Shown: positions 16,332-47,144 of the stretch, one piece after another
Numbering within the stretch: the stretch's first letter is position 1
Layout: every line of letters begins with the position of its first letter
DNA from: Escherichia phage KarlSchell_Bas89
Sequence record: PQ850613.1
DNA length: 64,000 bases
Reading direction: 5' to 3' (one strand)
Notes under the pieces: model-generated
What the model saw: only the letters and a program-made list of their open reading frames with translations
The model's database searches: none
Told to the model about the DNA's origin: nothing
Program-made: the position numbers and the translations under genes

Positions 16332-16835
16332 TCAATCTTTTTTAAACTCTCCATGATATTCCTCTCTTTTACTCTTAAGCCATCTATGTAAATATAAGAT
16401 ATCGTATGAAGATTTCGTGTAAGATTTACCTGATATGTAAATTCGAGCCTGGTAGTATCCCGGATTCTTTCCTCCATGAGAGTTGTCATGAATACCTTTA
16501 GGTAAAGAATCTCTTTTACTGCTCCAACCTCTAGTATTCCTAGCACTTTCCTTCGCATTACAAAGTCTAAGATTTTCTATTGTATTGTTGTCTAGGTTAT
16601 TATCTATGTGGTCTACTAAAAACCCTTCTGGGATAGGTCCATTATGGTACTCCCAAACCAACCGGTGAGCTTTAATTCTTCCAGAGTTTTTGGTGTTGAT
16701 TTCCCAATAACCTTTCTTGTTTTTCGTACCTACCACGCTTCCTATTTTTACAAAAGGGGCTGGTTTACTCTTCCAGAGAAATCCAGAAGGGGATTCAGAG
16801 GAGTATAGAAAATGGGTCCACTTTTCTTCACTCAT
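16332..16835 (-). CDS. HNH homing endonuclease
   Basis: AHRLVWEYHNGPIPEGFLVDHIDNNLDNNTIENLRLCNAKESARN. Confidence 0.8.
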   Translation of the reverse strand: MSEEKWTHFLYSSESPSGFLWKSKPAPFVKIGSVVGTKNKKGYWEINTKNSGRIKAHRLVWEYHNGPIPEGFLVDHIDNNLDNNTIENLRLCNAKESARNTRGWSSKRDSLPKGIHDNSHGGKNPGYYQARIYISGKSYTKSSYDILYLHRWLKSKREEYHGEFKKD

Positions 16836-16843
16836 ACACTCTC

Positions 16844-17212
16844 CTAGATTAAGTCGTAATACTGGATAATACCTTTCAGAGCAAAGTCACGAATCTGGTC
16901 TTTCTCTGTATCATAGGCTGTCATAATCCAGCAAGGATTCCCGTCATTGTGATAAACGGAAACACCAACTGAAGTTCGGATAGGAATAACGGCGCGGTCT
17001 GCAACCTCACCTCTCCAATTACGATAGCGAAAGCGAAGAATTTGTTTCGTAGAGACTGGAGCATCAGTTGTTTCCTTTTTTAAATTGTTTTCTAGCATTA
17101 TTTTCTTCTTGAGTTTTAGTCTTGTGACAAGGTTCTTTACAAAGCACTTGGAATCCATGCTTCTCAACAAGTGCCCTCTGAATAATTTCATCCCAAGTAG
17201 CTTCATGGTCAA
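16844..17212 (-). CDS. hypothetical protein
   Basis: ORF; true start probably an internal Met near 17098; overlaps next ORF. Confidence 0.3.
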   Translation of the reverse strand: MTMKLLGMKLFRGHLLRSMDSKCFVKNLVTRLKLKKKIMLENNLKKETTDAPVSTKQILRFRYRNWRGEVADRAVIPIRTSVGVSVYHNDGNPCWIMTAYDTEKDQIRDFALKGIIQYYDLI

Positions 17213-17465
17213 TAGGAACCAGAGGCTCTATATGGTCAATAGCCATTTCTTTAACAGGGTGATCATTGCCACACATAGCACATTGATAGTGCATTGCCAG
17301 CTTCCCTGTCTTGGGGTTTATCTTTCGTTCTGTTTGAGCATCTTTAAGAGCATCGAACATAGGCTTCCACTTCCTAGTCAGAGAGCGAATCCCTGACTTG
17401 ATGAAGGAGTTATATCGAGCTTCTGTCCAAGTGCCGCTACAGCGAGTCTTCTCAACCTTCGCCAT
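17064..17465 (-). CDS. His-Me finger (HNH-type) nuclease
   Basis: CAMCGNDHPVKEMAIDHIEP ... CKEPCHKTKT. Confidence 0.5.
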   Translation of the reverse strand: MAKVEKTRCSGTWTEARYNSFIKSGIRSLTRKWKPMFDALKDAQTERKINPKTGKLAMHYQCAMCGNDHPVKEMAIDHIEPLVPIDHEATWDEIIQRALVEKHGFQVLCKEPCHKTKTQEENNARKQFKKGNN

Positions 17466-17676
17466 AACCTACATCCATATCATCCTCCTGCCAAACTCTT
17501 TTATTAACACGGTGACTAACCTTGTCAGCTTTAGGGATACGACCAGTGCGTTGATCAAACAGTTGGTGTTTAATCTTCTGATCTTTACGAGTTTCACGGT
17601 TAGGTGCAGTTTCATCATAAGTACGGTAGTTGAATTTATTACCCATTATCAATATCCTTATTCCAAATTTTATCAA
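17452..17676 (-). CDS. hypothetical small protein
   Basis: ORF between two annotated genes; no motif. Confidence 0.25.
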   Translation of the reverse strand: MIKFGIRILIMGNKFNYRTYDETAPNRETRKDQKIKHQLFDQRTGRIPKADKVSHRVNKRVWQEDDMDVGYGEG

Positions 17677-18502
17677 GCCATGACCACTCGAAGAGGTCTT
17701 CTGGTGTTTGACCTACGAATAGGAGACGAGCATTCTCAAGCATCTTTTCTTCCCATTCTGTATCAAACTTCTTATAATATTCCATTCGCACTATATGATA
17801 AAGAGTCCACTTATCACTTACACCTTGTAAAAGGTTAATAGCAGCTTTCTTTCCAATCCCTTGACGACGGAGTTGTAACTTACCTCCCCACATGACTTCT
17901 TCACGCTCGCCACAACCGGGAATGTTGTCTGTGCCATCACCAATAAGCATTTGATAAAAGAAGTTTTGCCAAGCAACCTCATCTGATACGTAGTGAGGAG
18001 GAACCTCTTTCTGCCTTTCTCCACATGCCCACCGATAATGCCATCCGGGGGTTATCAATAAATCTTTGTCTCGTGTGCAGATGATAGTGTTCTTGTCAGT
18101 TCGCTGCCTTTCTGCTAATGCATCGTCAGCCTCTCTTCCATAAACACCTACATACTCGTAGTTATTTTTAATGTAATCACCAACGTTCTGCCAGTGGAAA
18201 GGTCTTTCTCCCGGAGGTCGGTTGGCTTTGTACCCTTGCTGCTTTGCTACATCAAAACGGAAGTTACCGCCTTCGCTGAAGTAGAAGATTGTCTTTCGGC
18301 AACCAGCGCGAGCAATGATTGTATCAATTTTATTTTGAAGTCGTTCAATTAGAAATCCATAATCTACTGGTGTACGTCCTGTATCTAGGAAAGGATGCTC
18401 CTGAGTCAGAGCACCCACTTCGTATCGGAGAACATCAGCATCAACCAAAGCTACTTCAGGATACTTAACATCTTCCATAAACATCATCCCGAGTTTGAGC
18501 AA
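17639..18502 (-). CDS. 5'-3' exonuclease / flap endonuclease (T7 gp6-like)
   Basis: ALVDADVLRY, GREADDALA, TRDKDLL, IGDGTDNIPG acidic-cluster motifs. Confidence 0.75.
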   Translation of the reverse strand: MLKLGMMFMEDVKYPEVALVDADVLRYEVGALTQEHPFLDTGRTPVDYGFLIERLQNKIDTIIARAGCRKTIFYFSEGGNFRFDVAKQQGYKANRPPGERPFHWQNVGDYIKNNYEYVGVYGREADDALAERQRTDKNTIICTRDKDLLITPGWHYRWACGERQKEVPPHYVSDEVAWQNFFYQMLIGDGTDNIPGCGEREEVMWGGKLQLRRQGIGKKAAINLLQGVSDKWTLYHIVRMEYYKKFDTEWEEKMLENARLLFVGQTPEDLFEWSWLDKIWNKDIDNG

Positions 18503-19079
18503 TAATCCAATCCAAATAATATCGAGCTTCCGAAATAGTCCGATTATTATATAATGTGCAAGTTTCTAACTGATTTCCTTCAATATAATTCCTAGAATCT
18601 CCAGAAAAATCACATCCCTCTCTTTTGACTTGAACTACTACTACATTGAAAGACTTCTCTAACTCTCTTACCTCTGCTTCAAACCCACCGTCCGTAAACA
18701 GGATAACATCATTATGATTCCTCCCTTCTGCATTGATGCTGTTTACTGCTTGGATTCCCATATAGTTCTCACCAAACATAGGTTTTAAGTAATCTTCACT
18801 TGTGGAAATCATTAAATCCCTAACAGATCTCCCTCCCCATTCAGGTCTAGCCTTTTCTTTCCAGTCTCGGTCTTTATACAACTCCAGAAAATCCTCCAAC
18901 TGCAAACCTAATGCTGCGGAGGCTACTTTGTACATAGGCTCTTTAAATGATTTAGCATAACGGGAATAAGACGCAATGTGGGATTTTAGTAACCACTCCT
19001 CAGCTATCGTGTCTTTACCACAACCCGGAGGCCCATTGAGAATTACTACTAAAGGTTTAGACTTATCAGTCATTTCCAA
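18465..19079 (-). CDS. P-loop nucleotide kinase (probable dNMP kinase)
   Basis: Walker A ILNGPPGCGKDT near N-terminus, about 200 aa. Confidence 0.5.
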   Translation of the reverse strand: MEMTDKSKPLVVILNGPPGCGKDTIAEEWLLKSHIASYSRYAKSFKEPMYKVASAALGLQLEDFLELYKDRDWKEKARPEWGGRSVRDLMISTSEDYLKPMFGENYMGIQAVNSINAEGRNHNDVILFTDGGFEAEVRELEKSFNVVVVQVKREGCDFSGDSRNYIEGNQLETCTLYNNRTISEARYYLDWIIAQTRDDVYGRC

Positions 19080-19462: not shown

Positions 19463-19463
19463 A

Positions 19464-20105: not shown

Positions 20106-20135
20106 AAGTTATCCTTAACTTTGTCGGTTTTAATT

Positions 20136-20870: not shown

Positions 20871-20892
20871 AAACTGTTACAAGGAGAGATAC

Positions 20893-22694: not shown

Positions 22695-23177
22695 TTAGAT
22701 AGTTAATTTGTGATCTTCCTCCGCTCTGTTTCTGACAGAGACGGCTTCCTCTAGGGTTGAGAAAGTTCCTAGGTATTTAGTTTTACCTTTAATGTGTATG
22801 TTGGCTATGTACTTCCCTCTTGAATTGAGGTACACACCCTTAGCCCCTGAGGTGTTGTTAGAATTCAAACCCTTATTCCAAGAGTTATTCTCGTTGTTAA
22901 CCTCTCTAAGGTTGCCTATGGAATCATTGGAAGGATTTCGATCAATGTGGTCTATTTGATCTTTAGGTAAAACGCCATTAGCAAAATACCAAATGATATG
23001 GTATCTGTAAATAGCTCTTCCTTTCAATCGAATAAACACTCTTCCATCCTTTTTTGAAGTTCCTGCCTCATCACCTCGCCTGCATTTTGTTCCGTTGTGA
23101 ATTCTCCAGAACACTTTCCCAGATGATAAATCACAAACAAAGAACTCATCCAGAAGATCTTCTATCATATCATGCAA
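22695..23177 (-). CDS. HNH homing endonuclease with AP2-like DNA-binding domain
   Basis: IDHIDRNPSNDSIGNLREVNNENN plus YLGTFSTLEEAVSVRNRA. Confidence 0.75.
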   Translation of the reverse strand: MHDMIEDLLDEFFVCDLSSGKVFWRIHNGTKCRRGDEAGTSKKDGRVFIRLKGRAIYRYHIIWYFANGVLPKDQIDHIDRNPSNDSIGNLREVNNENNSWNKGLNSNNTSGAKGVYLNSRGKYIANIHIKGKTKYLGTFSTLEEAVSVRNRAEEDHKLTI

Positions 23178-25066: not shown

Positions 25067-25552
25067 TCAATGTGTGTGATTCCAATTTAATCCAATCTGA
25101 CAGTCAGATGCCAGAGGGCATTCCATCTTGAGATACTCACCAGCTTTCTTAACACAAAGCTCTGTAAGCTCTTTTAGCTTTTGTGCATCATTACGGTGAA
25201 CAGAGAACTGCCCTTCATCGTGCATGTCAATAACCTTCGCACAACGAACACCATCACGCTCAATCCACTTGTTAAGGAAAAGCATGGCATACTTCATAAC
25301 AATCGCACCAGCACTCTGTAAGAGAGTATTCAGTGCTTTATGAACCATTACCTTGCCTGTTGCATCACGTCTCATTGTAATACGACGACCATCAACACCC
25401 AAGATATAACCTTGAGCTGCTTTCTCTGTCATACGCTCAATAAGAATTGCAATACAAGGATTCTCTGCCAAGAAACGTGCTCTCATTACTGCACCTTCTT
25501 CAGAGCCTCCACCAACGATAGAACCGAGCTTAGCATCACCTGCCCCATCAAT
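25067..25552 (-). CDS. DNA polymerase (family A, T7 gp5-like), 3' segment (after the inserted HNH element)
   Basis: Frame open upstream of the listed Met gives IDGAGDAKLGSIVGG...; contains ALNTLLQSAGA and motif C HDE; protein ends in H like T7 gp5 (from memory). Confidence 0.7.
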   Translation of the reverse strand: MDGAGDAKLGSIVGGGSEEGAVMRARFLAENPCIAILIERMTEKAAQGYILGVDGRRITMRRDATGKVMVHKALNTLLQSAGAIVMKYAMLFLNKWIERDGVRCAKVIDMHDEGQFSVHRNDAQKLKELTELCVKKAGEYLKMECPLASDCQIGLNWNHTH

Positions 25553-26332
25553 AGTTCAAGCAAAGGCGCTACTCTTTGCTCCGTTCTCTTATGAACTGCT
25601 TACAGTTTCCTGTAAGATCGGACTATATCTTCATCTCCACCTTTACGTGCTGAGAGACAGGCGCTTCCGTAACACTTGTTACGTACTCCCTTCCGGGATA
25701 GTCTCTGAACTTTCCGTGACACAAACTTTTCTACATAGATCAATGAACTGAGCATCAGATAGTTTACCTTTTGCATTATTCACTTCCCAAGTTACCCATT
25801 GGACATTTCCAATTTCGTAACCTTTCGAATTATCCTTCCTATCTAAAGAAAGTTTATTCGGGTGTCCGCTGACGAAAGATAGTGAATCCCCTGTCAAGGC
25901 ACATTTGTAGTTTTGCTGAGAAAGAAGCTCGAATAAATAGTCTTGAGTAATCGTGAACTCAAAACCCCTTTCTCTAGCTCTGTGATGGGAGTTGTGATAT
26001 CTCTCACGAACCGCTCCACCCCAAGTTTGTCGATATTGTCCCATAGCAGCAGATGCTGCACTTCTGTTTCGACGTCTCCACTCATTTGAAGCAATGCGAG
26101 CACAATTTTTACATTGACATTGCTTTCCATCTTTACTCTTAGATGAATTATGGAAACTGTCGAGTGGCTTTTCTTCGCCACAGCTTGAACATATCTTTGT
26201 CATAAACACCTCCTTGTGTTGATGTTTATGTCACGGCTTAGCTGCTGATTGGCATATCTTTCGACTTAGCTTTCCAGCAATTCACCTGTTTTGCTTCTGC
26301 ACATTTCTATGCAGTGAACCAATTATTTAGTT
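25553..26332 (-). mobile_element. candidate group I intron carrying an HNH endonuclease ORF, inserted in polymerase motif B
   Basis: Upstream piece stops right after TFIYAF, downstream frame resumes at IDGAGD; about 780 nt between, containing an ORF with its own RBS; boundaries approximate. Confidence 0.45.
25679..26209 (-). CDS. HNH homing endonuclease (insertion-encoded)
   Basis: SLDRKDNSKGYEIGNVQWVTWEVN; own RBS AAGGAGG. Confidence 0.8.
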   Translation of the reverse strand: MFMTKICSSCGEEKPLDSFHNSSKSKDGKQCQCKNCARIASNEWRRRNRSAASAAMGQYRQTWGGAVRERYHNSHHRARERGFEFTITQDYLFELLSQQNYKCALTGDSLSFVSGHPNKLSLDRKDNSKGYEIGNVQWVTWEVNNAKGKLSDAQFIDLCRKVCVTESSETIPEGST

Positions 26333-27694
26333 AAAGGCATATATAAATGTCTTCGCATTGTCACGAGTAGGAAGACCAGCAAGTCTCTGGTTGTGGGAGT
26401 GGATATCACCTTCTAATAAAATGTCACGATACATAACAGCAGAAGCTAAACCACGTTCAGCCAATGCTTTCTTACCAGCGTTACCTTCTGCAATGGCTTC
26501 AGCAAGCATGTCTCTACACTCTTTAATGAGGTAGTGAGCAAGCATACGAAGCTCTAATCCAGAACCGTCATAACCTAAGAAGAGTTCTCTACCAGCTGGT
26601 ACATAATATTTATACAGACCTACCGGTTTGTCTTTCTTTCCGGGTTTTCCACGTTCGTAGATAACGTTTGTATTTTTTCGTAAGTAACACCCATCAGGGA
26701 TATTGTTGGTAATGATGAAAGGATAGTTATGACTATCATCTGTGGAGTAGTTAGATTGAAATAAACTCCTACACTCGTGACCAAACAAACCGCGAGAAGG
26801 AATATTAACAACAATGCGATGTTTAAAACGAAATGTCGGAGTAGCGCAGCTATTAGCTTCCGCTGAGAGTTTACCATCTGGACGTTCCTTATCAATCAGT
26901 CCATTAATCAAGCCTAGTCTGTGAGCCGCTACAACACGTCTCTTAAGCAGACTTCCCACTTTACCTAGATCACCCTCAAGACCTTCTTCAAGAGTCTCTT
27001 CGAGGTTTGTAGGAGCTGTGGGCCACTTGTTTGAAGTAGCTAATGCTCTCTTAATTTCATCAAAGGTTACAGGTTTCTTCCTGTTAGGGTTCAAACCTAA
27101 ACCAAAGACATAAGCCTTCATGTAGTTGACAGTTTTGTGACGGAAGTGCTTATCCAAGAACTTCTTGATATCAGCATCAACCATCTGAGCTGTCTGTCGC
27201 TCTTTCTCATTGCCACGCATCCAAGAGTTGTACCATTCTTGATACGTTCCACACTTACGCATGGCTCGCTTAATCTCAAATGTGTTCCAAGGCTTCTTAG
27301 ATGTATTAAATTCTGGAGGAAGAAAACCTTCATCCATCAGTGCTTCTTTAACTCGTGCATCCTTTGATGGGTCAAAGTCAACATACTCAACACAAGTAAA
27401 AGCTCCACCAATATCTTCTCTCTTTAACCCTACTCTGTCGCAATATAATTGAGGCCACTTCTGAAGAGCACCAGTCTTCTTAAAGGGTTTCATGTAAGTA
27501 GAGCCATCAACCCTCATCTTAGGTAACAGAGGAATTAATTCTCTGTCGATGTTAACGATAATCTCTCTGAGAAGGTGAACATACCACCGTGCATTCCTCC
27601 GATTAAAGTTGACACCACTCTTCGCTTGCTTTGAAATTATATCAGCGACAGTCATCTCCGTTAAGAACGGAAGTACATCAGGGTTCTCCATCAC
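26333..27694 (-). CDS. DNA polymerase (family A, T7 gp5-like), 5' segment of polymerase domain
   Basis: GYDGSGLELRMLAHYL (motif A) and LPTRDNAKTFIYAF (start of motif B) closely match T7 gp5 as recalled. Confidence 0.8.
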
Positions 27695-28398: not shown

Positions 28399-28893
28399 TT
28401 AACTAGAGCTTAAAGCGTGTCTGATAGCTGTATGGCTTACACCAAACATCCTACCTAAAGCTCTTGTTCCAAACTGAGCAGAACCTTTGACATAAAGGTT
28501 TTTAACTCTTTTAACATCCTCTGTATTAAGTTTCATTCTAGGGTTTATGTTCCTGTGATGGCCTACATTAAGACCTGTATCAAAAGAATGTTGAACATTC
28601 TCAGAAGCATCTGCCCACTCTAGATTCTCAATACGATTATCACTTTTTACACCATTCTTATGATTTATCTGAGGTTTGTTTTCAGGGTTAGGTATGAAAA
28701 AGGTTGCTATCAACCTATGAGCTTTCCATGACCTCCCTTCAAAATAAACCCTAATATAACCTTTAGTGTCTAAGTGGCCAGCCTCTTTACCCGGATGGCT
28801 CTTATTCCACTTAAAACCTTTTGAAGATGACTCTGTGTAAAACAGACGACCAGAATCTCTATCATAAGAGAGGTAGTCGGATATAGGAATCAC
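28399..28893 (-). CDS. HNH homing endonuclease
   Basis: AHRLIATFFIPNPENKPQINHKNGVKSDNRIENLEWADASEN. Confidence 0.8.
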   Translation of the reverse strand: MIPISDYLSYDRDSGRLFYTESSSKGFKWNKSHPGKEAGHLDTKGYIRVYFEGRSWKAHRLIATFFIPNPENKPQINHKNGVKSDNRIENLEWADASENVQHSFDTGLNVGHHRNINPRMKLNTEDVKRVKNLYVKGSAQFGTRALGRMFGVSHTAIRHALSSS

Positions 28894-31417: not shown

Positions 31418-31436
31418 CCGTGAATTTCCTTATTTC

Positions 31437-31712
31437 TTATTTAATATCCAAAGCTGTTACTAAGAAAGCTTTCAGGTTTGCTTCAGTCTGCATACCAGAT
31501 AAGCTATAATGTGCTCCGCTGTTACGATTAGGCACAATGAAAGCAGGAATGCTTCGTACACCGTACTCGATAGCTCGCTCACGACCGTTGCCTTCGAGGA
31601 TATTAACCTCTTCAACTTCTAGGTTAAGCTCTTCAGCTAATTTGTTGAGGGTAGGAGCCATTGCTTTGCAAGGGGCACATTGATTACTATAAAACTTAAT
31701 AATTTTGTTCAT
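31437..31712 (-). CDS. thioredoxin/glutaredoxin-like protein
   Basis: CAPC active-site-like motif near N-terminus, about 90 aa. Confidence 0.55.
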   Translation of the reverse strand: MNKIIKFYSNQCAPCKAMAPTLNKLAEELNLEVEEVNILEGNGRERAIEYGVRSIPAFIVPNRNSGAHYSLSGMQTEANLKAFLVTALDIK

Positions 31713-33546: not shown

Positions 33547-34071
33547 TTATCTTTCATCCACATTAAAGGAGAGATGGAGTCTGCTTCTCATAGACTTAGC
33601 TAAAAGTTTTGCCTCTTCGAGAGTTTTCACTCCATATACAGACTCACGTTTACCATCTTTTTGAACAGAGACACAGAACGTCCCACCTTTCTCTTGGTAG
33701 ACATTCTTAATCCCTAGCTTGTTATCAACTCTGGTCTTAGCATTCTGACTATTTTCAGAGTGAGAACACTTTCTCAGGTTAATTTCTTCTAGATTCCCTC
33801 TGTTACCATCAGCGTGATCTATTTGATATTCATCCGATAAATCCTCACCAGTATAAAGAACAAAAAGAATCCTATGATTATGGACACGAACTCCTCCTAA
33901 GGGAATTTGGTAATATCCATCTTTTGTGAGTTTTCCAGCAGGTTTCCCTGCTATATCATTAGCAAATTTACTAGGCTTCCTTTTCCAAGAAAGCCCTGAC
34001 GGGGATGACATGTCTATGTTAAAAAGATCAAACACTTCATCATAGCATATCAGCATGGTTTGTTCCACCAA
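33547..34071 (-). CDS. HNH homing endonuclease with AP2-like domain
   Basis: YQIDHADGNRGNLEEINLRKCSHSENSQN. Confidence 0.75.
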   Translation of the reverse strand: MVEQTMLICYDEVFDLFNIDMSSPSGLSWKRKPSKFANDIAGKPAGKLTKDGYYQIPLGGVRVHNHRILFVLYTGEDLSDEYQIDHADGNRGNLEEINLRKCSHSENSQNAKTRVDNKLGIKNVYQEKGGTFCVSVQKDGKRESVYGVKTLEEAKLLAKSMRSRLHLSFNVDER

Positions 34072-34594
34072 AAGCTTTTGTTGGCCCTTGTTGGTTATTG
34101 TATGAACCTTTAGTTGCGTAACTATCTTCTTCAGAGGAGGAGTGTTTAAAGAACTCCATTTGACCGATACGCATTCCCGGCTTAATTAGCAAAGAGTGAT
34201 GCTGTAGGACGTTCTTGAATTCCATAGTAAGTTGGCTCCCATGCCACCCACCGTCAGCATGACCAGCGTGCATGTGCTCTAAGAAGCAACGACCAACAGT
34301 GGACCGTAACATGAAGTCACAACTAATATTATCTGGCAGGTTGAATGTCTCCACTGTATGAGCCAAGAAGCACTCACCCGGTTTGATAACTAAACCTTCT
34401 TCTGGAATCATAACCTCGTTGAAGTTAGGAGACTCTTTAGCGGAGATATCAACAACCCCATTAGCTGCTCCTTCCATCAGAACACGGTCTCCAATACGAA
34501 CATCAATACTGGAGGAGTTAACAGCTGAGTGAGGTGCATCAATAACACCATCATCGATTAGTTTATGTAATTCCGGACTTCCTAATAAACTCAT
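34040..34594 (-). CDS. dcd: dCTP deaminase-like (dUTPase superfamily)
   Basis: N-terminus and length resemble Dcd; beta-rich, Gly-rich loops. Confidence 0.6.
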   Translation of the reverse strand: MSLLGSPELHKLIDDGVIDAPHSAVNSSSIDVRIGDRVLMEGAANGVVDISAKESPNFNEVMIPEEGLVIKPGECFLAHTVETFNLPDNISCDFMLRSTVGRCFLEHMHAGHADGGWHGSQLTMEFKNVLQHHSLLIKPGMRIGQMEFFKHSSSEEDSYATKGSYNNQQGPTKAFGGTNHADML

Positions 34595-36438: not shown

Positions 36439-38222
36439 GGGCTTTTCTCTCCATCTTGAGCAAGAAGTGATGCTGCATCCTCTCCATTTGTCAGCGAGAA
36501 TGGATTTTCTTCATCAATTTCATGTTCTTCACGCTCAAGCAGTCGTCCCGTCTCTCCTACATATTTCGTATAGCACACCCCTGTTTGTCCATAGTTACGC
36601 TCTTTGAGGAGTCGTATAATGGAGAGGTTCTTAGCCAGACCATCTGCTTGTTTGTCACGTTCAAAACCGATGATACATTGACACCAACGCATAAGAGAAC
36701 GAGAGCCAGTAAACTGTACCTCTCGAACCTGACCACCTTCTTCATGAGGTGCACCACCTGCCGGAGCATTGAGGTGAGATAATACGAATGCTGTGAAGTT
36801 TAATTCTTGACACATACCAGCAAGCTCGGAAGCAATCTTACTGATTTCAGTGTTAATCTCTGAAGGTGTTAAATGAGACACCAGAGCGGTAATATTATCA
36901 AGGATGATAAACTTACACTGGTTTTCAACAACCCAGAAACGGATACACTGTTTAATGTCGGCCCATTCATTCTGACCAAAGTTATCATAGAGGAAGAATT
37001 TATCTGCATATCGAAGAGCTTCGTTACGCAATGTATCTTCATCATACTCAACATCAGGTCTGTGGAAAGGGATAGATGCTGACTTACCTGCAATGTTCTT
37101 AACGGACATTCCGACCTTCTCTTCCAAGAAGAATCCACCACCATTAAAACCATGCTCAAGACAAAGCCAAGCAACCAGTTCATGTGCAATCAGTGTTTTA
37201 CCAGAGCCTACACCGCCACCAATTGCTACCATCTCTCCCCAACGAATACCGTAGGTCATCTCATTAAGAGTCTTCCACGGATATGGGATACCCCACTCTG
37301 CTTTCTTCAGAGCATCATCTAAGCAATCAAAAACAGTTACAGCACCAGCTGGAGATTCACGCTTCGCTGAATATTTAAGAATGTTAAACAACTCCTGACC
37401 ACGACCAGAGAGAAGCATATCATTCGCATCTTTAAGTTCTTTCTCAACACCATTGTACTGGAAAGAACCTTTAGGAATACGAGCAAACTTCACATGTGGG
37501 AACAGAGCACGCCCTTTGGTAAGAGCAATCTCACCAGCATCATCGTTGTCCATACAGAGGACAACCTCTTCAAAACCATTCAAGAACTCACGGTTGCGAG
37601 ATAGAACGGAAGAGATTGACCCTGCACCGAATGGTAAAGAGACACACGCTGGTTTAATGTTTGTTGCATTTGTAAAAGCTGTAAGAACGTGGAAGCCAGA
37701 CATACAAGACAAGGGGTCTTCAAAGATGAAGAGCTTCTTATTGTACACATCTCCACGTTTAGCCTGTGCCATACCAAACAAATCAGCTTCTTTCACACTA
37801 CCGATGTAATAAAACTTTTTACTATCGAGCAGTTTAACCTCATAACCGACAATGTTTCCATCACGTTCACGAGGGAAGAAGTAACTATCCGGTGTCTGAC
37901 CATCAGTTTGACTGAGACCTATACGACACTCAAAACGCTCTGATACAGCTTTAGGGATTAATCGACGAGTGAGTTCTCCTTGAGGTAACTCCAAGCAATC
38001 ATCCAAGACTTCTCGAAGTTCTTCAGGGGACAGCTCTTTCTTTTCATTTGGTGTAGGTGTCGTGCCTTTCTCAAAGACTTCGTAATTACCACACCGGTTG
38101 CAACTTCCAAAAGTTTCTTCAGTTTCTTCGTTATGAAACAGAATCATATGATTGCCGGTCTTGTCCCTACCATGTGACTGGCATTCTTTACAAGCGCAAT
38201 CTCCAATAATCTTTTTAGACAT
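36432..38222 (-). CDS. DNA primase/helicase (T7 gp4-like)
   Basis: Zinc ribbon CACKEC...[23 protein letters not shown], Walker [20 protein letters not shown]; start at internal Met 38222 with GGAG upstream. Confidence 0.85.
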
Positions 38223-38706
38223 ATAATCTCCATCCGTGAGTTTGTTTATATTCTCCGCTATATAACCTGTAAAGGGCGGCAGAATCAACACCAGAAAGCC
38301 TTGAAAGCTGTCTTATACTATCACCTGAAACAATTTCCCCATTACTAGAGACGATCGACATACTCTTACCAAAAGAATATATCTGATTGTACTCAGAAGT
38401 GCACCACTCTAGATTCTCTACCAGATTATTATCTGGCTGTTCATCTATATGATTAACTTGAGGTAAGTTTTCAGGGTTAGGAAGGAAAGCTATAGCTACT
38501 AATCTGTGTACACTTCTAGTACATTTAACACCTTCAGAGTTTGTCATTCTCACGTAAAGATATTTACGACTATAATGTAGAGACTTGATAGCTGGCTCTG
38601 TGGGAGGTTTTCTCCCACGTCCAGTAATTCTCCAAGATCTTATACGTCCAAAGGATGAAACCTCATACCCCGGAAAATCTGTAATTGGTTTCCATTCTTC
38701 TGACAT
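38215..38706 (-). CDS. HNH homing endonuclease
   Basis: VHRLVAIAFLPNPENLPQVNHIDEQPDNNLVENLEW. Confidence 0.8.
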   Translation of the reverse strand: MSEEWKPITDFPGYEVSSFGRIRSWRITGRGRKPPTEPAIKSLHYSRKYLYVRMTNSEGVKCTRSVHRLVAIAFLPNPENLPQVNHIDEQPDNNLVENLEWCTSEYNQIYSFGKSMSIVSSNGEIVSGDSIRQLSRLSGVDSAALYRLYSGEYKQTHGWRLYV

Positions 38707-38743
38707 GCTCTATCCTCCTTGGATTCTCCTTGAGCAAACTACC

Positions 38744-38953
38744 TTACTTATAAAAACTTCGAATCATGTCCCAGATTTCTTCCTGCTGGACCCTAAAGAA
38801 AGCTAAACGTGTCGATGTACGTTCAATAAATTCTTCACTATGCTTTTCTCTATCTAGCATACTGACAAGCTTTTCATATTTATTGATCTTCCATCGCATT
38901 TTTAAATAGTCTGATTCTAGTGTCCTTAACCTCTGACACTCAATCAAATCCAT
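38744..38953 (-). CDS. hypothetical protein
   Basis: ORF only. Confidence 0.3.
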   Translation of the reverse strand: MDLIECQRLRTLESDYLKMRWKINKYEKLVSMLDREKHSEEFIERTSTRLAFFRVQQEEIWDMIRSFYK

Positions 38954-39372: not shown

Positions 39373-39443
39373 TTTAAATACCTTTGTTCATTGTTTAGTT
39401 AATCCGAACTAGCCTCCTCTTTCGAAGAAGCTAGAGCAGATTG

Positions 39444-39626
39444 CTATGCTGTGAAGTTTTTGATTACACCGCAAATAACATCTGTTTCAAACGTACCCAC
39501 CAGAACATCGTCTCGGTAGAAGTTAATCGCCTTACCATCTCGGTTAAAGTGATCTGCTTCAATGAGCATAGATTGTACCTGACCATCTGGAGTGGAGGTT
39601 CGAAAGATGACGTTATACTGACTCAT
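39444..39626 (-). CDS. hypothetical small protein
   Basis: ORF only. Confidence 0.25.
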   Translation of the reverse strand: MSQYNVIFRTSTPDGQVQSMLIEADHFNRDGKAINFYRDDVLVGTFETDVICGVIKNFTA

Positions 39627-39865
39627 AAAGAAGTTACTCCCTTATCTTCTTGGGCGATAGAGATGATACGACTCACACACTGCATTGAGTACTCATCACC
39701 ACGCTTTAGGAACGTTACGATAGCAGAGAATTGATTACCAATCATCCGCTCATTTGTAATACCGAACTCTTTGCAGAGTTCTTTCAGTTTGCTACGAGAA
39801 CCAATAATCAGAGGTTCTTTTTCTTCAGTCATTCCACGACTAATCAAATCTTCAATAGACAACAT
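39623..39865 (-). CDS. hypothetical small protein
   Basis: ORF only. Confidence 0.3.
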   Translation of the reverse strand: MLSIEDLISRGMTEEKEPLIIGSRSKLKELCKEFGITNERMIGNQFSAIVTFLKRGDEYSMQCVSRIISIAQEDKGVTSL

Positions 39866-39888
39866 AATTCCATTCCTTGGGGGTTTAA

Positions 39889-41106: not shown

Positions 41107-41108
41107 TT

Positions 41109-41342
41109 TTAGATACCTTTAAGTTTAAGAATTTCGTTGCGAGTACGTTGGATACGTTCTTCAAGAGTGTGATAATCAAAGATGCACATCTCTTCTGCTT
41201 CATCAGAAGGTGCATCCATTAAACCCATAGCAATCGGATACACCTTTCGCTGTTCCGTTGTCATGCCCTGTAGCCGGAGTCGTTGATACTCCAGCAGGGT
41301 AATTTTCGGCTTGTTAGTTTCCTTGCTTGACATGAGGCTCAA
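41109..41342 (-). CDS. hypothetical small protein
   Basis: ORF only. Confidence 0.3.
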   Translation of the reverse strand: MSLMSSKETNKPKITLLEYQRLRLQGMTTEQRKVYPIAMGLMDAPSDEAEEMCIFDYHTLEERIQRTRNEILKLKGI

Positions 41343-41547
41343 CCTTGATACCTTTCAGTTTCACATAGTCAGCCAGCACGTTGTTAATAACTGTTGGGAA
41401 AGGAATCTCAACAGGTGCATTAACTAACCCACCAATACCCTCTTGCATCCACTTCTGGATTGCACGAAGGTTATCACATCCTGTGCTTGTCATTGGAATA
41501 CGGCGAGTGGTTACAACGTTATCCAACATCATCTTACGAATTTCCAA
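41314..41547 (-). CDS. hypothetical small protein
   Basis: ORF only. Confidence 0.3.
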   Translation of the reverse strand: MEIRKMMLDNVVTTRRIPMTSTGCDNLRAIQKWMQEGIGGLVNAPVEIPFPTVINNVLADYVKLKGIKVEPHVKQGN

Positions 41548-42043
41548 GGTACACCTCTACATTTTCATTTAGTTTAGCAAAAGATTTGTGATGAATAGGA
41601 GCTGCTTTATTGTAAGCATTTGCTGCATCTTCCTCGGTAGAAAACCTACCAAGATACAGAAGCTTACCATCAACTCGAATCCTCGCTTCCCATTTACCAG
41701 AATTGAAGTATATTCCTTTATACTTGGTATTTTTACCATTCATAACAGAACAGTTTCTACTATTTCCTGCTGCATCAGCTTCTCTAAGATTTTCGGGATG
41801 CTGATCATCTCGGATACCATTGATATGGTCTACATATTTAGGAAGGTATCCATTATACATAAAGAAAGCTACCCTATGTGCTAGGTATGTCTTTCTTTTG
41901 AATCCGATTTGAATATACCCGCTATCTTTGTTTAGGCTTCCAGCAAAATCTCCAACTTGTTTCATCGGGGTAGGTTGTTTCCAATAGAGACTCCCCTCTT
42001 TATGTTCCAACCTAGATGCAAGCTCTATTAGTGTTTCATCCAC
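41534..42043 (-). CDS. HNH homing endonuclease with AP2-like domain
   Basis: AHRVAFFMYNGYLPKYVDHINGIRDDQHPENLREA plus YLGRFSTEEDAANAYNKA. Confidence 0.75.
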   Translation of the reverse strand: MDETLIELASRLEHKEGSLYWKQPTPMKQVGDFAGSLNKDSGYIQIGFKRKTYLAHRVAFFMYNGYLPKYVDHINGIRDDQHPENLREADAAGNSRNCSVMNGKNTKYKGIYFNSGKWEARIRVDGKLLYLGRFSTEEDAANAYNKAAPIHHKSFAKLNENVEVYLGNS

Positions 42044-42053
42044 TCTACACCTC

Positions 42054-44072
42054 TTAATTATGACCTTTACAGTGCACTGAATCGCACACCACTTGATTGG
42101 TATTGTTTAGTGTGCAGAGTTCTGCATCACGCCACGGAATCTTTTTAAAACAGACTGCACAAAACCCAAGAGTAGACCAGAGGGCTTTTGTGAAGGTTGC
42201 TGATCGGTTTCCATCGAAGGACGCAACTGTTCTGGTAATTGAGACTTTTGACTCACGAAAGGTTTCCGCTGCTGGAGCGGGTTCCTCCTTTGGGGTAGTC
42301 ACTGCAATAGCATAAACACCACCCCAACGCTTCTCAATGTAAGCACCGAACACATCTTCCAGAGTGATTTCACTCTTACGTTTGGTTGAGGATTCCATGA
42401 CAATCATGTTGTCCAGAATCTTTTGATCAACACGAAGAGCTACTTCAGGACGTCGAGCACTTGTTGTATCAACATACTTGGTCCAAACATAACCCTCTTT
42501 CAGAGTGACTTGAGTTGCTTGCTTCTTTGCTTTATTAGCACAGATTTTACAAACATCGTCACTACGAAGTTTACTGAACTCTTCATCAAATTCAAAGTCA
42601 GACTTCACTTCGCCGCACACTGAACAAACGCCGATAGGAATCTCATCCTCTTCAACGTCTTCCACTTGCTTCTGGATAGAGTCAAAACAAGCTTTATGCC
42701 AATATGCTTGGTATGCGAAGATCGCACTTGGTGCTTCTTTCCAGTCGATGTGCTTATCACAGCCACCACAATCACCGTGGGAATGGGCTTCCCAGAACTT
42801 ACGAGTGATAGTCACCCCATTCTTGCTGACAAAACTATCCTCTGCGTCAAAAGGGATATCATCATCGAAATCAGCAGTAGTGCTTTCCGGCTCCTTTTTC
42901 GACAAATCAAAGAAGTGACCAGAGATTAACACCAGACGAATCATGCTATTAACTTCAGAGATACAGCCAACCGTACCACGGTAAACCATATGCTTGTTCT
43001 TAAGAGCAGCTTCATAATCAGTTTGCAGGATGTTATGAACATCACCCTCAATATACTCTTGAGCTTTGTCATCATAAATATAACCAACCATCTTACCGCG
43101 ATCGGTATCTTTATAACAAACAAACTCATGAGGAATAATATCAACCTGCATATCACGACGGATATCAACACCTTTGTCAGAGGCGATCTTGTTTTGTTTC
43201 AAGATTGCTTCACGACGACGTACATCACCTGCGGTTACGCCGGGCTTTCTTTGCTCGTCGCTGTTCCCGTTTAAGTAACTTTTTACTACGCTTGAGTGGT
43301 TGTTGCTGTAGCTGTTCGAGTAATAACTGCCCCAACGCGTTGCTACCGTAAAAACCGGGAGTTCATGTACGACCTCCTCTACCAAAGTCATCTTGTTGTC
43401 AGAAACATCAAAGATGTACTCTGTACCGACCTTACACTCAAAGTGCTCATCAATTCGGTTCTTGTGGCTCTTAGAACGCTGAAGAATCCACATCAACATC
43501 GCTTCTTCTGAAGCACCAAACCATGAAGTTCCCAGACGGGCCAGATGGAATGGACGCTCATCGTTGCGAATGATGTGAAGACGGTTATCACTTGCATCAT
43601 GCCAGATCAGAGTGAATGCACCATCCAACTTCTGAATAGTCTCTGCTGCACCAATCTTGTTAATAGAGTGGCAGATATTCTCACTATCAACTTCAAAAGC
43701 CTTACTGTCAGGCAGGAGGTCTTGATCAACTAGGGTTCCGTTATGAACCAGAGTGATGTTTCCGTGAGAGAATGGGTGAGCGTTACGTGAGTTAATAGCG
43801 CCTTTCGTAGCATGTCGGCTGTGACCAACAATCCATGAAGGAGGCACTGTGTAATTAGTAAGGCCAGTTGTCAGCTCGGTGTACTCTTTCTGTAACATGA
43901 AAGCATAGGAAGGCAGTGCTTCTTTATAAGAGAACACAGATCTTTCGCTTTTACGCTGACCGAAAATACCAGTTGAGTGTTGACCACGAAATACACCAGC
44001 GTAGAGAAGCTGGTTGTAAATATCTAAGTCATAACTTGAGAGGCTTCCACCTGCTAATACGATACCACAAAT
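42054..44072 (-). CDS. class II (Ntn) glutamine amidotransferase fused to a Cys-rich C-terminal domain; probable non-AUG (ATT) start
   Basis: Frame upstream of the track start reads stop-K-I-CGIVLAGGSLSSYDLDIYNQLLYAGVFRGQHSTGIF, the classic MCGIV N-terminus; GAFTLIWHDASDNRLHIIRND downstream. Confidence 0.7.
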   Translation of the reverse strand: MCGIVLAGGSLSSYDLDIYNQLLYAGVFRGQHSTGIFGQRKSERSVFSYKEALPSYAFMLQKEYTELTTGLTNYTVPPSWIVGHSRHATKGAINSRNAHPFSHGNITLVHNGTLVDQDLLPDSKAFEVDSENICHSINKIGAAETIQKLDGAFTLIWHDASDNRLHIIRNDERPFHLARLGTSWFGASEEAMLMWILQRSKSHKNRIDEHFECKVGTEYIFDVSDNKMTLVEEVVHELPVFTVATRWGSYYSNSYSNNHSSVVKSYLNGNSDEQRKPGVTAGDVRRREAILKQNKIASDKGVDIRRDMQVDIIPHEFVCYKDTDRGKMVGYIYDDKAQEYIEGDVHNILQTDYEAALKNKHMVYRGTVGCISEVNSMIRLVLISGHFFDLSKKEPESTTADFDDDIPFDAEDSFVSKNGVTITRKFWEAHSHGDCGGCDKHIDWKEAPSAIFAYQAYWHKACFDSIQKQVEDVEEDEIPIGVCSVCGEVKSDFEFDEEFSKLRSDDVCKICANKAKKQATQVTLKEGYVWTKYVDTTSARRPEVALRVDQKILDNMIVMESSTKRKSEITLEDVFGAYIEKRWGGVYAIAVTTPKEEPAPAAETFRESKVSITRTVASFDGNRSATFTKALWSTLGFCAVCFKKIPWRDAELCTLNNTNQVVCDSVHCKGHN

Positions 44073-44146
44073 TTTCTAATCCACCTGAAGGGTAAACCCT
44101 TTCATCTAATTAACCTTTAGTTGTGCCCCTTTCGAGGCACCCATTG

Positions 44147-45247
44147 TTACAGCAGTCGTTCTAACTGAATTTCCAAGTGATCTGGAATATACTCAGTGAC
44201 GTTGTTATCGGAGACGCCAGATTCACGCATCATGTTGAGCATGTTACGAATCTGCCCTTCTGTTGCTTCACGAGCTTCGCTGATCTCTGATTCATAGAGG
44301 GACATAATCTCGTCATGAACATCTGGAGCGTTACCTCGAACATATCCGAGGAAGCCGTAGAAGTCAGACATATCACGAAGAGATACAACTACGGACCCAC
44401 TATTATCAAGAGTTTGTAAACGAATACGCCCAACCTGACGTACAGAACGGTTACGACAGAACAGGATATCACGAGCCAGACGATAACCACTATCAAGATC
44501 TTCGTGTCTTGGTGAATAATCCAGAGGTAGGTGAGGTAGCATAGGTTCAAAACGAACCCTGTTAAGCATCTCAACAAACTCTTCATTGTCAAGCTCTGCA
44601 TTCTCAACTGCTAATTTCTTGAGAACCAAGAAGCGATTTACCAGATTTAACAGCTGACCTTTCTTCCACTTAGGCTCTGAGATACGGAACTCAACAGAAC
44701 CGAACTGAGCCAGAGGAAGTAGATTAAGTGATGTATACTTATCCCAACGATCAACAATATGTCGGAAGAAGTTCTCACCTTCGTAGTTAAACGCTTCAGA
44801 GGCATTCATTACTTGAGCCTGAACCACTGCAAACGCAGGACAGAAATTACTACGGTAACGGTGATAACCAGAGCACTTAAACATCAATGCTTCATAGAAA
44901 GTCCACCCAAGGATAACTTTCTTAACGATGTTGCTATCAGCATCTCGCATATCCATATGAACGTGAGTGGAACAGCGCCAAGTCCCTTCTGCTTCGGACT
45001 CCATCACTGCCTCACTCAGATTGTTGATAGCGTCAAACAGTTCTACACCATTGTAAGGGCGAGAACAGACCATTTCACATCCGTTGCGAAGCGAGCCGTC
45101 CTCTGTACATTCCCACATATCTGCTTCGATATGATCGTCACCTTCAAGCTCCAGCTCAATACCAATACCACATTGGAATGCGATACTCGGATGTTCTTCA
45201 CTCAGACGATTACTACGGTATCCAAAAGCTTGCGCTACAGTTGTCAT
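44147..45247 (-). CDS. amidoligase (glutamine-synthetase-like carboxylate-amine ligase)
   Basis: GIGIELELEG and CSTHVHMDM resemble amidoligase/GS-like metal-binding motifs. Confidence 0.55.
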   Translation of the reverse strand: MTTVAQAFGYRSNRLSEEHPSIAFQCGIGIELELEGDDHIEADMWECTEDGSLRNGCEMVCSRPYNGVELFDAINNLSEAVMESEAEGTWRCSTHVHMDMRDADSNIVKKVILGWTFYEALMFKCSGYHRYRSNFCPAFAVVQAQVMNASEAFNYEGENFFRHIVDRWDKYTSLNLLPLAQFGSVEFRISEPKWKKGQLLNLVNRFLVLKKLAVENAELDNEEFVEMLNRVRFEPMLPHLPLDYSPRHEDLDSGYRLARDILFCRNRSVRQVGRIRLQTLDNSGSVVVSLRDMSDFYGFLGYVRGNAPDVHDEIMSLYESEISEAREATEGQIRNMLNMMRESGVSDNNVTEYIPDHLEIQLERLL

Positions 45248-45858
45248 AACGACTCCACTAACTCCACAGTGTATTGGTTAAAATCACTTTCAATATGCTT
45301 GAACTTGTCAAGCAGTTGTACGGTCTGACGACCACGGCTGTCATATCCAGCCCTAAGAAGCACACGACCAACATGTGCACCTTTATAATAAATAAGACCA
45401 TCAGAAGGGTTGATGAAGATGAATCGAGTCAACAAACCTTCAAAGGATGGATTAAACAGGTTATAAACCATCTCACCGGAGATGTTACGACCCAGAGAAG
45501 TTACACCACGGAGTTTGTTACCCATTAGACCCTTAGCTCGCTGACGAACTGGATTGATATGGGTCCAACTTACCATGTTACGACCGTGTTGAAGATAACC
45601 AACATCAGGGGATTCCAGAATCAGGTTAGGGTTGAACACCCCAATCTGAACTGTTGTACGGTTAAACCCTGAGTCTGTTTTAATCCAACGCTCTGCTTCG
45701 AACATCAAAGCCATCTCTGCTTCATGAGAGAAGTCATCACGAGAGAACTCACCTTGTTGGAATACGTTCATAACAAACAGTGGGATATTTAGGTTCCCAC
45801 GTCTTTCAGCAATCCATGTCCCACAATAGTAATGAGAGAAGTCAGTTACTAAGCTCAC
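45244..45858 (-). CDS. hypothetical protein (cluster member)
   Basis: ORF with 4-nt overlap to neighbour, suggesting co-translation. Confidence 0.4.
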   Translation of the reverse strand: MSLVTDFSHYYCGTWIAERRGNLNIPLFVMNVFQQGEFSRDDFSHEAEMALMFEAERWIKTDSGFNRTTVQIGVFNPNLILESPDVGYLQHGRNMVSWTHINPVRQRAKGLMGNKLRGVTSLGRNISGEMVYNLFNPSFEGLLTRFIFINPSDGLIYYKGAHVGRVLLRAGYDSRGRQTVQLLDKFKHIESDFNQYTVELVESL

Positions 45859-45867
45859 GATAACCCC

Positions 45868-46677
45868 TTACGCTACCTGTAAACGTTTCAAGAACACACC
45901 TGCTTCACGAACATCATTGGTGTTGATGATCTGGTGCAGCTTTTCAATCGGAAGGCGAGAGTGGAGGCTCATCAAGAACTCCATGTCGCTGTTTTGTACA
46001 ACCTTGTCAACTTGATCATACACAAATTGACGATCTTCTTTCTTGCCAATCCAGAAGTTCGACAGAGATCGATACTCAATACCGTAAGGTTTGTAACGGA
46101 TTGCGGATGCTTTACCGTACAGCTCTTTACGACGAGTATCACCGTCCATCAGAACAGCAGGCAATGACAGGAAGTAATCACACAGAACGCCCAGCATCAT
46201 CTGAACCTTCTTATTCACATCCAGAGAGCCAGTGACACCAATGTGCACATGACCACCTGCTGTACGCAAGCCCTTGTTCTCTGAAGTTGGAGAAGCATTC
46301 TTTTGACCGGTGAATGCGTTGAAGTCTGGAGTACAACCAAACACGAAAGCGGACGGATGGAATGATTCCAATTCTTCTTTAGAGAAGATATGAGAGCTTA
46401 CACCCAGAGCCGCTTCCATGTCCTGTTTCTTCAGCACTTCATTGGTAAGATCAATACCGCGCTGAACGTTGTCATTAAACGCTTCAAAACCTTGTTGTGG
46501 GTTGATATCAAACTCAGCCAGCACGTTGTCTTCTTGGAGACGTACATCCTTAGCCAGATCGATTTTATTTTCTTTAGAACAACCCAGCTTGCCAGCAACA
46601 GAGGTGATGATGCCAGAAGAAGTACGAACAAACATCTCTGGGTCCGTCCCAATTAAAAATACACGTTTAGTAGTCAT
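45868..46677 (-). CDS. second glutamine-synthetase-like ligase (putative)
   Basis: LIGTDPEMF and GGHVHIGV resemble GS/GCS2-type motifs. Confidence 0.45.
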   Translation of the reverse strand: MTTKRVFLIGTDPEMFVRTSSGIITSVAGKLGCSKENKIDLAKDVRLQEDNVLAEFDINPQQGFEAFNDNVQRGIDLTNEVLKKQDMEAALGVSSHIFSKEELESFHPSAFVFGCTPDFNAFTGQKNASPTSENKGLRTAGGHVHIGVTGSLDVNKKVQMMLGVLCDYFLSLPAVLMDGDTRRKELYGKASAIRYKPYGIEYRSLSNFWIGKKEDRQFVYDQVDKVVQNSDMEFLMSLHSRLPIEKLHQIINTNDVREAGVFLKRLQVA

Positions 46678-47144
46678 GCTTTAGTCCAACCTTTATGAGA
46701 TAGATAGTTTTTAAACCTGCCACTGTGAACAGCTCCCATGTGGCCGGGATGTAAGTTGTTATTTCTACAGAAGTCTTTGAGGTTATATATTTTAACAACC
46801 CTTCCTTCTGGAGATTTAAACTTCCAAAATCTAGCATTCCCTTTCACAGCATTATCTTTGCTGGATAGAAGTTGGAAATTGGTGAGACGGTTATTAGTTT
46901 TATCACCATCTATGTGGTCAACTGTCATGCCCTCAGGTATCGGGCCTATAAACAACTCCCACAAGAGCCTGTGTACCAGAAAATTTCTTGTAATCTTTTC
47001 CGGAGCTTGAATGGCAACAAACCTTAAATAGCCATCTTTATCAGGGAATGTTTTCCTACATTTCCCTGTTTTTGCATTAATGATTCTACCGTTTTCAAAT
47101 ACCCGAAAAGTAGAAACACCAACTACTAACTCTCTGTAGTCCAT
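46674..47144 (-). CDS. HNH homing endonuclease
   Basis: VHRLLWELFIGPIPEGMTVDHIDGDKTNNRLTNFQLL. Confidence 0.8.
   Translation of the reverse strand: MDYRELVVGVSTFRVFENGRIINAKTGKCRKTFPDKDGYLRFVAIQAPEKITRNFLVHRLLWELFIGPIPEGMTVDHIDGDKTNNRLTNFQLLSSKDNAVKGNARFWKFKSPEGRVVKIYNLKDFCRNNNLHPGHMGAVHSGRFKNYLSHKGWTKA

Follow-up and report, generated by a model that had tools for sequence, protein, structure and literature searches.

We analysed a 64,000-nucleotide (nt) stretch of the genome of Escherichia phage KarlSchell_Bas89 (sequence record PQ850613.1), hereafter the window, whose replication and nucleotide-metabolism module has very probably acquired site-specific selfish nuclease genes by eight separate invasions. 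Seven of these are HNH genes at gene boundaries, and the eighth is carried by a predicted group I intron in the DNA polymerase gene. DNA searches against deposited phages placed the phage among the phiEco32-like podophages of the Gordonclarkvirinae, genus Nieuwekanaalvirus. Its closest relatives are the Escherichia phages KBNP1711 and EP335, with 95-97% nt identity to the window, and Kuravirus and Suseptimavirus phages, among them ES17, YF01, PAS59, SU7 and phiEco32, are 76-82% identical. The minus strand carries every gene from approximately 16.3 kb to 62 kb, a stretch that contains the replication, nucleotide-metabolism and amidoligase module; the genes, exons, intron, tracts and sites whose coordinates are given below lie on this strand. 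The density of mobile elements is eight in approximately 31 kb of a genome of approximately 76 kb.

The module was compared by local BLAST with six relatives (KBNP1711, EP335, TH38, ES17, YF01 and PAS59) and several metagenome contigs; insertions relative to EP335 were called by blastn, and the identities of elements and flanks were scored in 100-nt windows. Eight precise insertions were found, i.e., 16335-16817, 22704-23172, 25547-26327, 28417-28914, 33550-34245, 38223-38695, 41559-42045 and 46672-47151. At the matching places EP335, which is empty at all eight window sites, holds 0-10 nt, with the exception of 182 nt at 33550-34245. Each free-standing HNH gene corresponds to an insertion of approximately 470-500 nt at a gene boundary, and its site is empty in both EP335 and KBNP1711. 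Indeed, KBNP1711 lacks all seven genes with the Pfam HNH_3 domain and has only the polymerase insertion in common with the window. A comparison of gene order, proposed together with the original prediction of these elements, thus revealed empty sites in close relatives rather than the same open reading frames (ORFs) at identical positions throughout. The number of HNH_3 genes in the comparable region is 0 in KBNP1711, 1 in EP335, 1 in TH38, 2 in ES17, 3 in YF01, 5 in PAS59 and 7 in the window. Across the Gordonclarkvirinae at least 13 sites are variably occupied, of which the window phage holds 8. One site that is empty in the window, site G between thyX and thioredoxin (31429..31440), has an HNH gene in EP335, ES17, TH38, PAS59 and two metagenome-assembled genomes (MAGs).

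All nine nuclease ORFs that had been listed from the sequence, i.e., eight HNH genes and a His-Me finger nuclease at 17064, are present on the minus strand (ORFs are named here by their lower coordinate). Profile searches found nuclease motifs in seven of the eight HNH candidates, which scored above the Pfam gathering score for HNH_3 with E-values from 1e-6 to 8e-19, i.e., 16332-16835, 22695-23177, 28399-28893, 33547-34071, 38215-38706, 41534-42043 and 46674-47144. The eighth, ORF 25679, has no Pfam match and is better described as an intron-encoded, PacI-like ββα-Me protein. A hidden Markov model built from the seven found no further HNH_3-type copies in any frame of the 64-kb window. Pairwise identity among the seven proteins is only 24-35%, so we regard the genes as separate lineages; recent intragenomic duplication was considered and is ruled out by the same figures.

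The seven proteins fall into two predicted architectures. Four (16332, 22695, 33547 and 41534; phrog_99) combine the HNH domain with an AP2-like DNA-binding tail, and three (28399, 38215 and 46674; phrog_59) are I-HmuI-like, with NUMOD4, HNH and helix-turn-helix segments. In the alignments, a D/N-H dyad (DH or NH) and the N...N residues are visible, and the HNH core aligns to I-HmuI (1U3E), with E=2.4e-6 for ORF 38215 and E=5.8e-9 for the phrog_99 profile. AP2-like tails had been noted on several ORFs. This holds at the profile level, because the C-terminal tail of a phrog_99-type profile (the four window proteins plus relatives) matches plant AP2/ERF structures, the best being WRI1 at E=1.7e-9, followed by TEM1, ERF096 and AtERF1. 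Individually, only ORF 41534 scores against Pfam AP2, and does so below threshold (25.3 bits against a 33.3-bit cut-off; 1.8e-5); the tail is most divergent in ORF 16332. The helix-turn-helix tails of 28399 and 38215 were recognized by sequence inspection and weak Pfam matches only.

Each free-standing element appears to borrow or duplicate a ribosome-binding site (RBS), a start codon or a stop codon at its insertion point, so that it would be co-translated with its neighbours. The overlaps of 4-40 nt that had been described between the nuclease genes and adjacent genes were recovered, at 4 nt for 22695, 28399 and 46674 (reading ATGA or GTGA), 8 nt for 38215, 14 nt for 41534 and 17-32 nt for 33547. 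The placement of the elements beside essential genes was likewise borne out at the primase-helicase, dCTP deaminase and ligase genes, and also at the polymerase gene, where the association is by way of the intron.

At site A, the HNH gene with an AP2-like tail at 16332..16835 (HNH_3 8e-19) is the final gene ahead of the convergent terminator. Its same-site counterpart in the Kuravirus PAS59 is 98% identical in amino acids and 96-99% in nt, between flanks that are 70-91% identical. In EP335 and KBNP1711 the site holds an 8-codon micro-ORF that has its start in common with the HNH gene, and in the Kuraviruses it holds an unrelated small ORF with the same MNEE start. We had considered the micro-ORF to be a deletion scar of the HNH gene, a claim that was dropped in view of this resident MNEE-start ORF of the Kuraviruses.

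The HNH-AP2 gene at site D (22695..23177; HNH_3 8e-10) is inserted among the final codons of the upstream ORF. Translation probably begins at ATG 23168, where the start codon and the upstream stop codon overlap (ATGA); relative to EP335 and KBNP1711 the gene is a precise 469-nt insertion. Its same-site counterpart in YF01 is 97.5% identical in amino acids and 94-96% in nt, with flanks at 60-85%. At site I, the HNH-AP2 gene 33547..34071 (HNH_3 2e-8; probable start ATG 34056) lies downstream of the dCTP deaminase gene and is 94% identical in amino acids to ES17 gp071, which occupies the same site. The HNH-AP2 gene at site K (41534..42043; HNH_3 4e-12) is flanked by a 9-nt duplication of an RBS (AGAGGTGTA), and the downstream start codon is changed from ATG to TTG. 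This gene is 99-100% identical in nt to the copy in MAG L019, where the flanks are 59-90% identical; the same flanks are 100% identical to those of EP335, which is without the gene.

Site J holds a NUMOD4-HNH gene of the I-HmuI-like type (38215..38706; NUMOD4 4e-9, HNH_3 1e-6), which uses the RBS and ATG of the primase-helicase gene; the new start of the latter gene is 8 nt ahead of the HNH stop codon. The best match to this protein in a set of 50,697 phage records was only 42% identical. In each of five metagenome contigs a homologue (71-97%) immediately precedes the primase-helicase gene, and in contigs L019-L021 the element is 89-99% identical in nt between flanks at 65-88%.

The two remaining genes are marked by a lower identity to their same-site copies. 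At site F, the I-HmuI-like gene 28399..28893 (HNH_3 5e-11; C-terminal helix-turn-helix) is a 498-nt insertion into the upstream ORF at its 3' end, shortly ahead of a terminator at 28396-28371. Like ORF 22695, it ends on the original stop codon of the upstream ORF. Copies at this site are 67% identical in amino acids in YF01 and 80% in MAG L020 (partial), and against YF01 the element is 65-71% identical in nt with flanks at approximately 80-87%. At site L, the I-HmuI-like gene 46674..47144 (HNH_3 4e-18) lies upstream of the COOH-NH2 ligase gene. Same-site copies in SU7, PE006, Bas86 and SDYTW1 are 78-79% identical in amino acids, and in nt, against SU7 and L020, the identity of the element is 92% falling to 70%, with flanks at 63-85%. 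The ligase gene now begins at 46677 with a recoded copy of its start (MTTKRVFLIGTDP) carried at the 3' end of the HNH gene, and its orphaned original start is left upstream (47152..47179), visible as a 25-nt duplication in the junction alignment against EP335. Because their same-site copies are less identical, 28399 and 46674 look like older residents.

An excess of identity in the element over its flanks, or co-converted flanks, was found for 16332, 22695, 33547, 38215 and 41534, and was weak or absent for 28399 and 46674. Two flanks bear the marks of co-conversion. The recoded 5' end of the primase-helicase gene (38115..38214) is 92-93% identical to MAGs that bear the homing endonuclease gene and 69-72% to EP335 and KBNP1711, and this pattern flips directly downstream of the tract; the N-terminus of the protein is MSKIILGDTGCKEC in EP335 and is different in the window. 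Similarly, the dCTP deaminase allele (34040..34594, 184 amino acids) is 88-92% identical in nt to ES17 and 60-70% to EP335 and KBNP1711, with identity to the latter two back to 85-99% past approximately 34547. The pattern indicates that the whole dCTP deaminase gene probably arrived together with the adjacent HNH gene 33547. The original prediction had taken the density of nuclease genes to imply homing between co-infecting relatives, and at the level of sequence comparison this interpretation is supported by the empty sites, by the elements that exceed their flanks in identity and by the co-conversion tracts.

ORF 25679 had been listed together with the other HNH genes. We correct this to an intron-encoded ORF, since it lies in a predicted group I intron that had been missed. 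The intron, 780 nt at 25549..26328, interrupts motif B of the family A DNA polymerase (NAKTFIYAFN|YGAG) after Asn454. Exon 1 (26329..27694) is 100% identical to residues 1-454 of the EP335 polymerase and exon 2 (25067..25548) is 98% identical to residues 456-614. The EP335 polymerase is intact at 614 amino acids, and the gene is interrupted in the window and in KBNP1711. The spliced product (27694..26329 joined to 25548..25067; 615 amino acids) aligns without gaps to the EP335 polymerase over 614/614 residues at 99.5% identity, and the predicted ligated exon junction, 26329|25548, reads ...UUUAACU-AUGGGGCAGG... Splicing of this predicted self-splicing intron would thereby keep the polymerase intact at the RNA level. 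An intein was ruled out by a stop codon directly after the 5' junction and by the RBS of the nuclease ORF itself.

At the Rfam gathering threshold no intron was reported in the window, because the ORF splits the model. A permissive scan gave half-matches to Intron_gpI (RF00028) of 34.7 and 48.1 bits on either side of the ORF, against a gathering score of 50, and the homologous introns of two metagenome contigs (L015 and L016) score above the threshold at 56.2 and 54.7 bits. At the junctions AACU|AAAU...GGUU and ...UAUUG|AUGG, the 5' exon terminates in a U, which can pair with the intron GGUU, and the intron terminates in a G. The junctions are the same in all intron copies, with the exception of the first intron bases of contig L012 (AACU|CAAC). 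In a covariation alignment of five diverged introns without ORFs, 29 of 76 pairs were compensatory and 96% of cells were paired, a result reached by 0 of 500 shuffles and compared with 1-5 in slid controls. The compensatory pairs fall in P2, P3, P6/P6a, P8, P9 and peripheral hairpins, and P7 is invariant; P1 was kept outside the count, as MAFFT misaligned the 5' exon of two copies with a P1 extension. The permissive Rfam scan of 15.5-48.5 kb revealed no second intron, and the other seven elements are therefore taken to be free-standing.

Introns were also seen in the polymerase genes of other phages. KBNP1711 has the same intron (approximately 39193-39974 of its record; L001 13009-13790), annotated there as gp050 'DNA polymerase', gp051 'endonuclease' and gp052 'putative DNA polymerase', with an intron ORF that is frameshifted by a 1-nt indel, either by decay or by sequencing error. 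A contig from a more distant phage (L012 2150-3660; SRR25400274_1121) has two polymerase introns 16 nt apart in motif B, which follow AKTF and FN and have an ORF each, of 161 or 174 amino acids. A second polymerase intron site, empty in the window, lies near residue 564/565 in PAS59 (L006 24900-25750) and in contig L007 (4000-4750). The intron there has an HNH_3 ORF and partial Intron_gpI matches of 30.9 bits in PAS59 and 26.3 bits in L007, and the PAS59 polymerase is annotated as truncated.

The intron-encoded endonuclease of the window (25679..26203, 174 amino acids; listed frame 25679-26209) is situated in the P6a loop, has its own RBS and a likely start at ATG 26203, and overlaps the 3' core of the intron by approximately 11 codons. 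It has an N-terminal Cys4 zinc ribbon followed by a PacI-like ββα-Me domain (SLDRKD...GY...N...N..K), and matches PHROG 1035 at 4e-44, which PHROGs labels 'endonuclease VII'. No match was found in Pfam or NCBIfam, and single-sequence searches of the PDB returned nothing usable for this ORF or for ORF 17064; its placement is therefore by family profile and predicted fold only. The family profile matches PacI (3LDY) at E=1.8e-5. A predicted model (pLDDT 90) has 3ldy_A as its top Foldseek match (E=7.5e-4, probability 1.00), with TM-scores of only 0.38-0.45, and the next matches are Hpy99I, Cas9 HNH domains, Gme HNH and T4 endonuclease VII. The C, D, G, Y, N, N and K columns are invariant in the family alignment. 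We read the protein as a probable PacI-like ββα-Me nuclease in which Arg would replace the usual catalytic His.

Eleven loci in metagenome contigs (L007-L017) were examined, with four homologues of ORF 25679 among them, and in all 11 the homologues are flanked by split polymerase halves. The family, for which neither Pfam nor NCBIfam has a model, numbers 23,134 cluster representatives at E<=1e-3, with two or more copies of the domain in many proteins. Two extrapolations are offered tentatively, and we think it rather unlikely that they will hold: PacI-like proteins may be a large uncurated family of homing endonucleases, and, separately, allele replacement in the Gordonclarkvirinae replication module could be driven mainly by the standing pool of nucleases at 13 or more sites. 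If the former is true and members are widely associated with introns or gene boundaries, they would represent an unrecognized major class of homing endonucleases and a source of rare-cutting specificities. If the latter is true, the swap of the whole dCTP deaminase gene would be an example.

ORF 17064 (17064..17465) stands apart from the mobile elements. That it is a His-Me/HNH protein is upheld by its match to PHROG 3106 at 1e-37 and by its CxxC...DH...CxxCH pattern; Pfam HNH and HNH_5 were matched below threshold only, and NCBIfam returned no match. Its grouping with mobile genes did not survive the comparison, since it occupies the same place in 6 of 6 relatives at 83-100% amino acid identity, tracking the backbone. 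It is a vertically inherited core gene rather than a homing element. A packaging-associated function was considered, after the example of HK97 gp74-like HNH proteins, whose genes adjoin those for terminase and portal. Within the replication operon, however, ORF 17064 is located distally and adjoins the 5'-3' exonuclease gene, and the YF01 paper puts the terminase genes elsewhere and declines to assign a role in packaging (PMC9965538).

The most likely route of spread is a simple sequence of events. During mixed infection, each nuclease would nick or cut the allele of a relative without the gene, at or near the insertion point, and repair would then copy the nuclease gene and a variable flanking stretch from the carrier genome. 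Recoded flanks, i.e., the 5' end of the primase-helicase gene, the first nine ligase codons and the dCTP deaminase allele, would make the carrier allele resistant to cutting. We infer the cleavage activity of the nucleases, and the super-Mendelian inheritance of their genes, from these comparisons.

Several points weigh against repeated invasion by homing nucleases. The half-matches of the window's own intron, in which the ORF splits the model, each lie below the Rfam gathering score. ORFs 28399 and 46674, at 67-79% to their same-site homologues, may be old and possibly inactive. The micro-ORF at site A could be either a deletion scar or the original target, leaving the direction of change there ambiguous. 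Finally, ordinary homologous recombination between co-infecting phages could also yield presence/absence polymorphism and patchy identity. In its strongest form this last point becomes the proposal that the HNH genes are passive cargo, shuffled by mosaic recombination, with nuclease activity irrelevant to their spread. Mosaic replacement without a nuclease gene is indeed present, at 18480-19069 and in several small-ORF blocks that do not align to either close relative, and the ES17-like patch of approximately 1 kb with dCTP deaminase and HNH genes could be a simple recombinant segment. We nevertheless consider passive shuffling improbable, because the exchanged segments coincide almost exactly with nuclease ORFs, and the insertion sites are single-nucleotide-precise and recur across genera. 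Moreover, flank identity switches within 100 nt or less, the HNH_3 core is kept in all seven proteins, and recoded target-side flanks are expected of nuclease-driven homing and not of random mosaicism.

Another explanation inverts the direction of change, such that the nucleases would be ancestral functional genes (for degradation of host DNA, exclusion of competitors or packaging) that were lost repeatedly, with the empty sites being deletions. The first codons of the site A micro-ORF in EP335 and KBNP1711 resemble the HNH start, the frameshift in the KBNP1711 intron ORF indicates that decay does happen, and the core protein 17064 is an example of how HNH proteins can become fixed in this lineage. 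Yet four of the nuclease genes are 94-100% identical in nt between backbones that are 60-90% identical, which is incompatible with vertical descent and loss. The empty sites in EP335 are also seamless, with gene ends and overlaps intact, and the unrelated MNEE-start ORF of the Kuraviruses means that the apparent scar at site A may be the original target. Repeated loss is in our estimation highly improbable, even more so than passive shuffling, and separate invasions by homing nucleases are the reading that we prefer.

Other features of the window were recorded in the course of the analysis. From 34609 to 48101, nuclease genes are interspersed among the nucleotidyltransferase, glutamine amidotransferase, ATP-grasp, amidoligase, COOH-NH2 ligase and gamma-glutamyl cyclotransferase genes of a conserved cluster. 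The block at 18480-19069, approximately 590 nt in the dNMP kinase region, has no blastn alignment to EP335 or KBNP1711 between flanks that are 96-98% identical, and appears to be an allele replacement without an adjoining nuclease gene. A tRNA gene lies at 53290-53363 on the minus strand (Rfam 58.7 bits), and the corresponding place in EP335 is annotated as tRNA-Arg. Between a convergent 1473-amino-acid ORF and the first HNH gene is a 36-bp G+C-rich terminator hairpin (16269-16304), which is found at 100% identity in more than 140 T4-like myophages of Klebsiella, Enterobacter, Cronobacter and Citrobacter, and a copy of which is annotated as a terminator in Citrobacter phage Miller. This hairpin is the source of matches to 144 phage records at 99% identity or more that had suggested cross-family transfer of an element, and the suggestion was discarded. 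Phages of the phiEco32-like type encode their own sigma factor. A scan of sigma-70 promoters was uninformative, because 44 sites were found against 45 expected by chance.

Homing endonuclease insertions in this subfamily have been mentioned in passing. The legend of S3 Fig in the BASEL collection paper refers to "homing endonuclease insertions" in the dCTP deaminase-replication locus of Gordonclarkvirinae (PMC11990801), and four HNH domains are listed for YF01 in the paper on that phage (PMC9965538). The passages concerned treat the same subfamily, the same replication locus and the same kind of element, and the searched text of the two papers contains no site-by-site occupancy, no evidence from identity contrasts or co-conversion and no polymerase intron. 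Our literature search found no account of a phiEco32-like polymerase gene interrupted by a group I intron, and in database records the pieces of the split polymerase are listed as distinct genes. HNH homing endonucleases, whether free-standing or intron-borne, have long been familiar from phage replication genes, and nothing here challenges the current understanding of them; only the intron, together with the PacI-like nuclease that it carries, had gone unreported. As regards annotation, the polymerase of KBNP1711 and of the window phage, listed as two genes and an "endonuclease", is most probably one intron-containing gene. The window phage, EP335 and several carriers of single elements, available as isolates or as assembled genomes, form a natural panel for studying homing, the length of co-conversion tracts and target immunity, with eight different nucleases in a single cross. 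Gordonclarkvirinae are also candidate therapeutic phages, and co-infection by the members of a cocktail could lead to the exchange of elements and flanking alleles.

The elements described here can be set beside several known systems. In the Bacillus phages SPO1 and SP82, group I introns of the DNA polymerase gene encode I-HmuI and I-HmuII, which are HNH homing endonucleases that nick DNA. The window phage likewise has a predicted group I intron, itself bearing a nuclease ORF, in its polymerase gene, as well as proteins of similar size (approximately 160-175 amino acids) with the HNH_3 core and NUMOD4-like N-terminus of I-HmuI. However, its I-HmuI-like proteins are free-standing at gene boundaries, the nuclease in its polymerase intron is PacI-like, and the phage is a podovirus of a Gram-negative host. 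The free-standing Seg and Mob endonucleases of T4-like phages, of which Seg are GIY-YIG proteins and Mob belong to a different HNH lineage, undergo intronless homing with co-conversion. In common with these, the window elements are inserted between, or at the ends of, essential genes for replication and nucleotide metabolism, are polymorphic for presence and absence, and are accompanied by short co-conversion tracts and recoded target-side sequence; they differ in the AP2-like tail of 4 of the 7 and in their higher density. HNH-AP2 endonucleases of phages and cyanobacteria have been proposed as ancestors of plant AP2/ERF domains, and the four phrog_99 proteins have the same order of an HNH core and a C-terminal domain that matches AP2/ERF structures at the profile level, although individually only 41534 reaches a sub-threshold Pfam AP2 score. 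PacI, finally, is a small HNH restriction enzyme with two Cys4 zinc sites. The intron protein shares its (V/L)DR.D...GY..N......N..K motif, with Arg instead of the canonical His, and differs from it in being intron-encoded within a phage polymerase gene and in having an added helical middle region.

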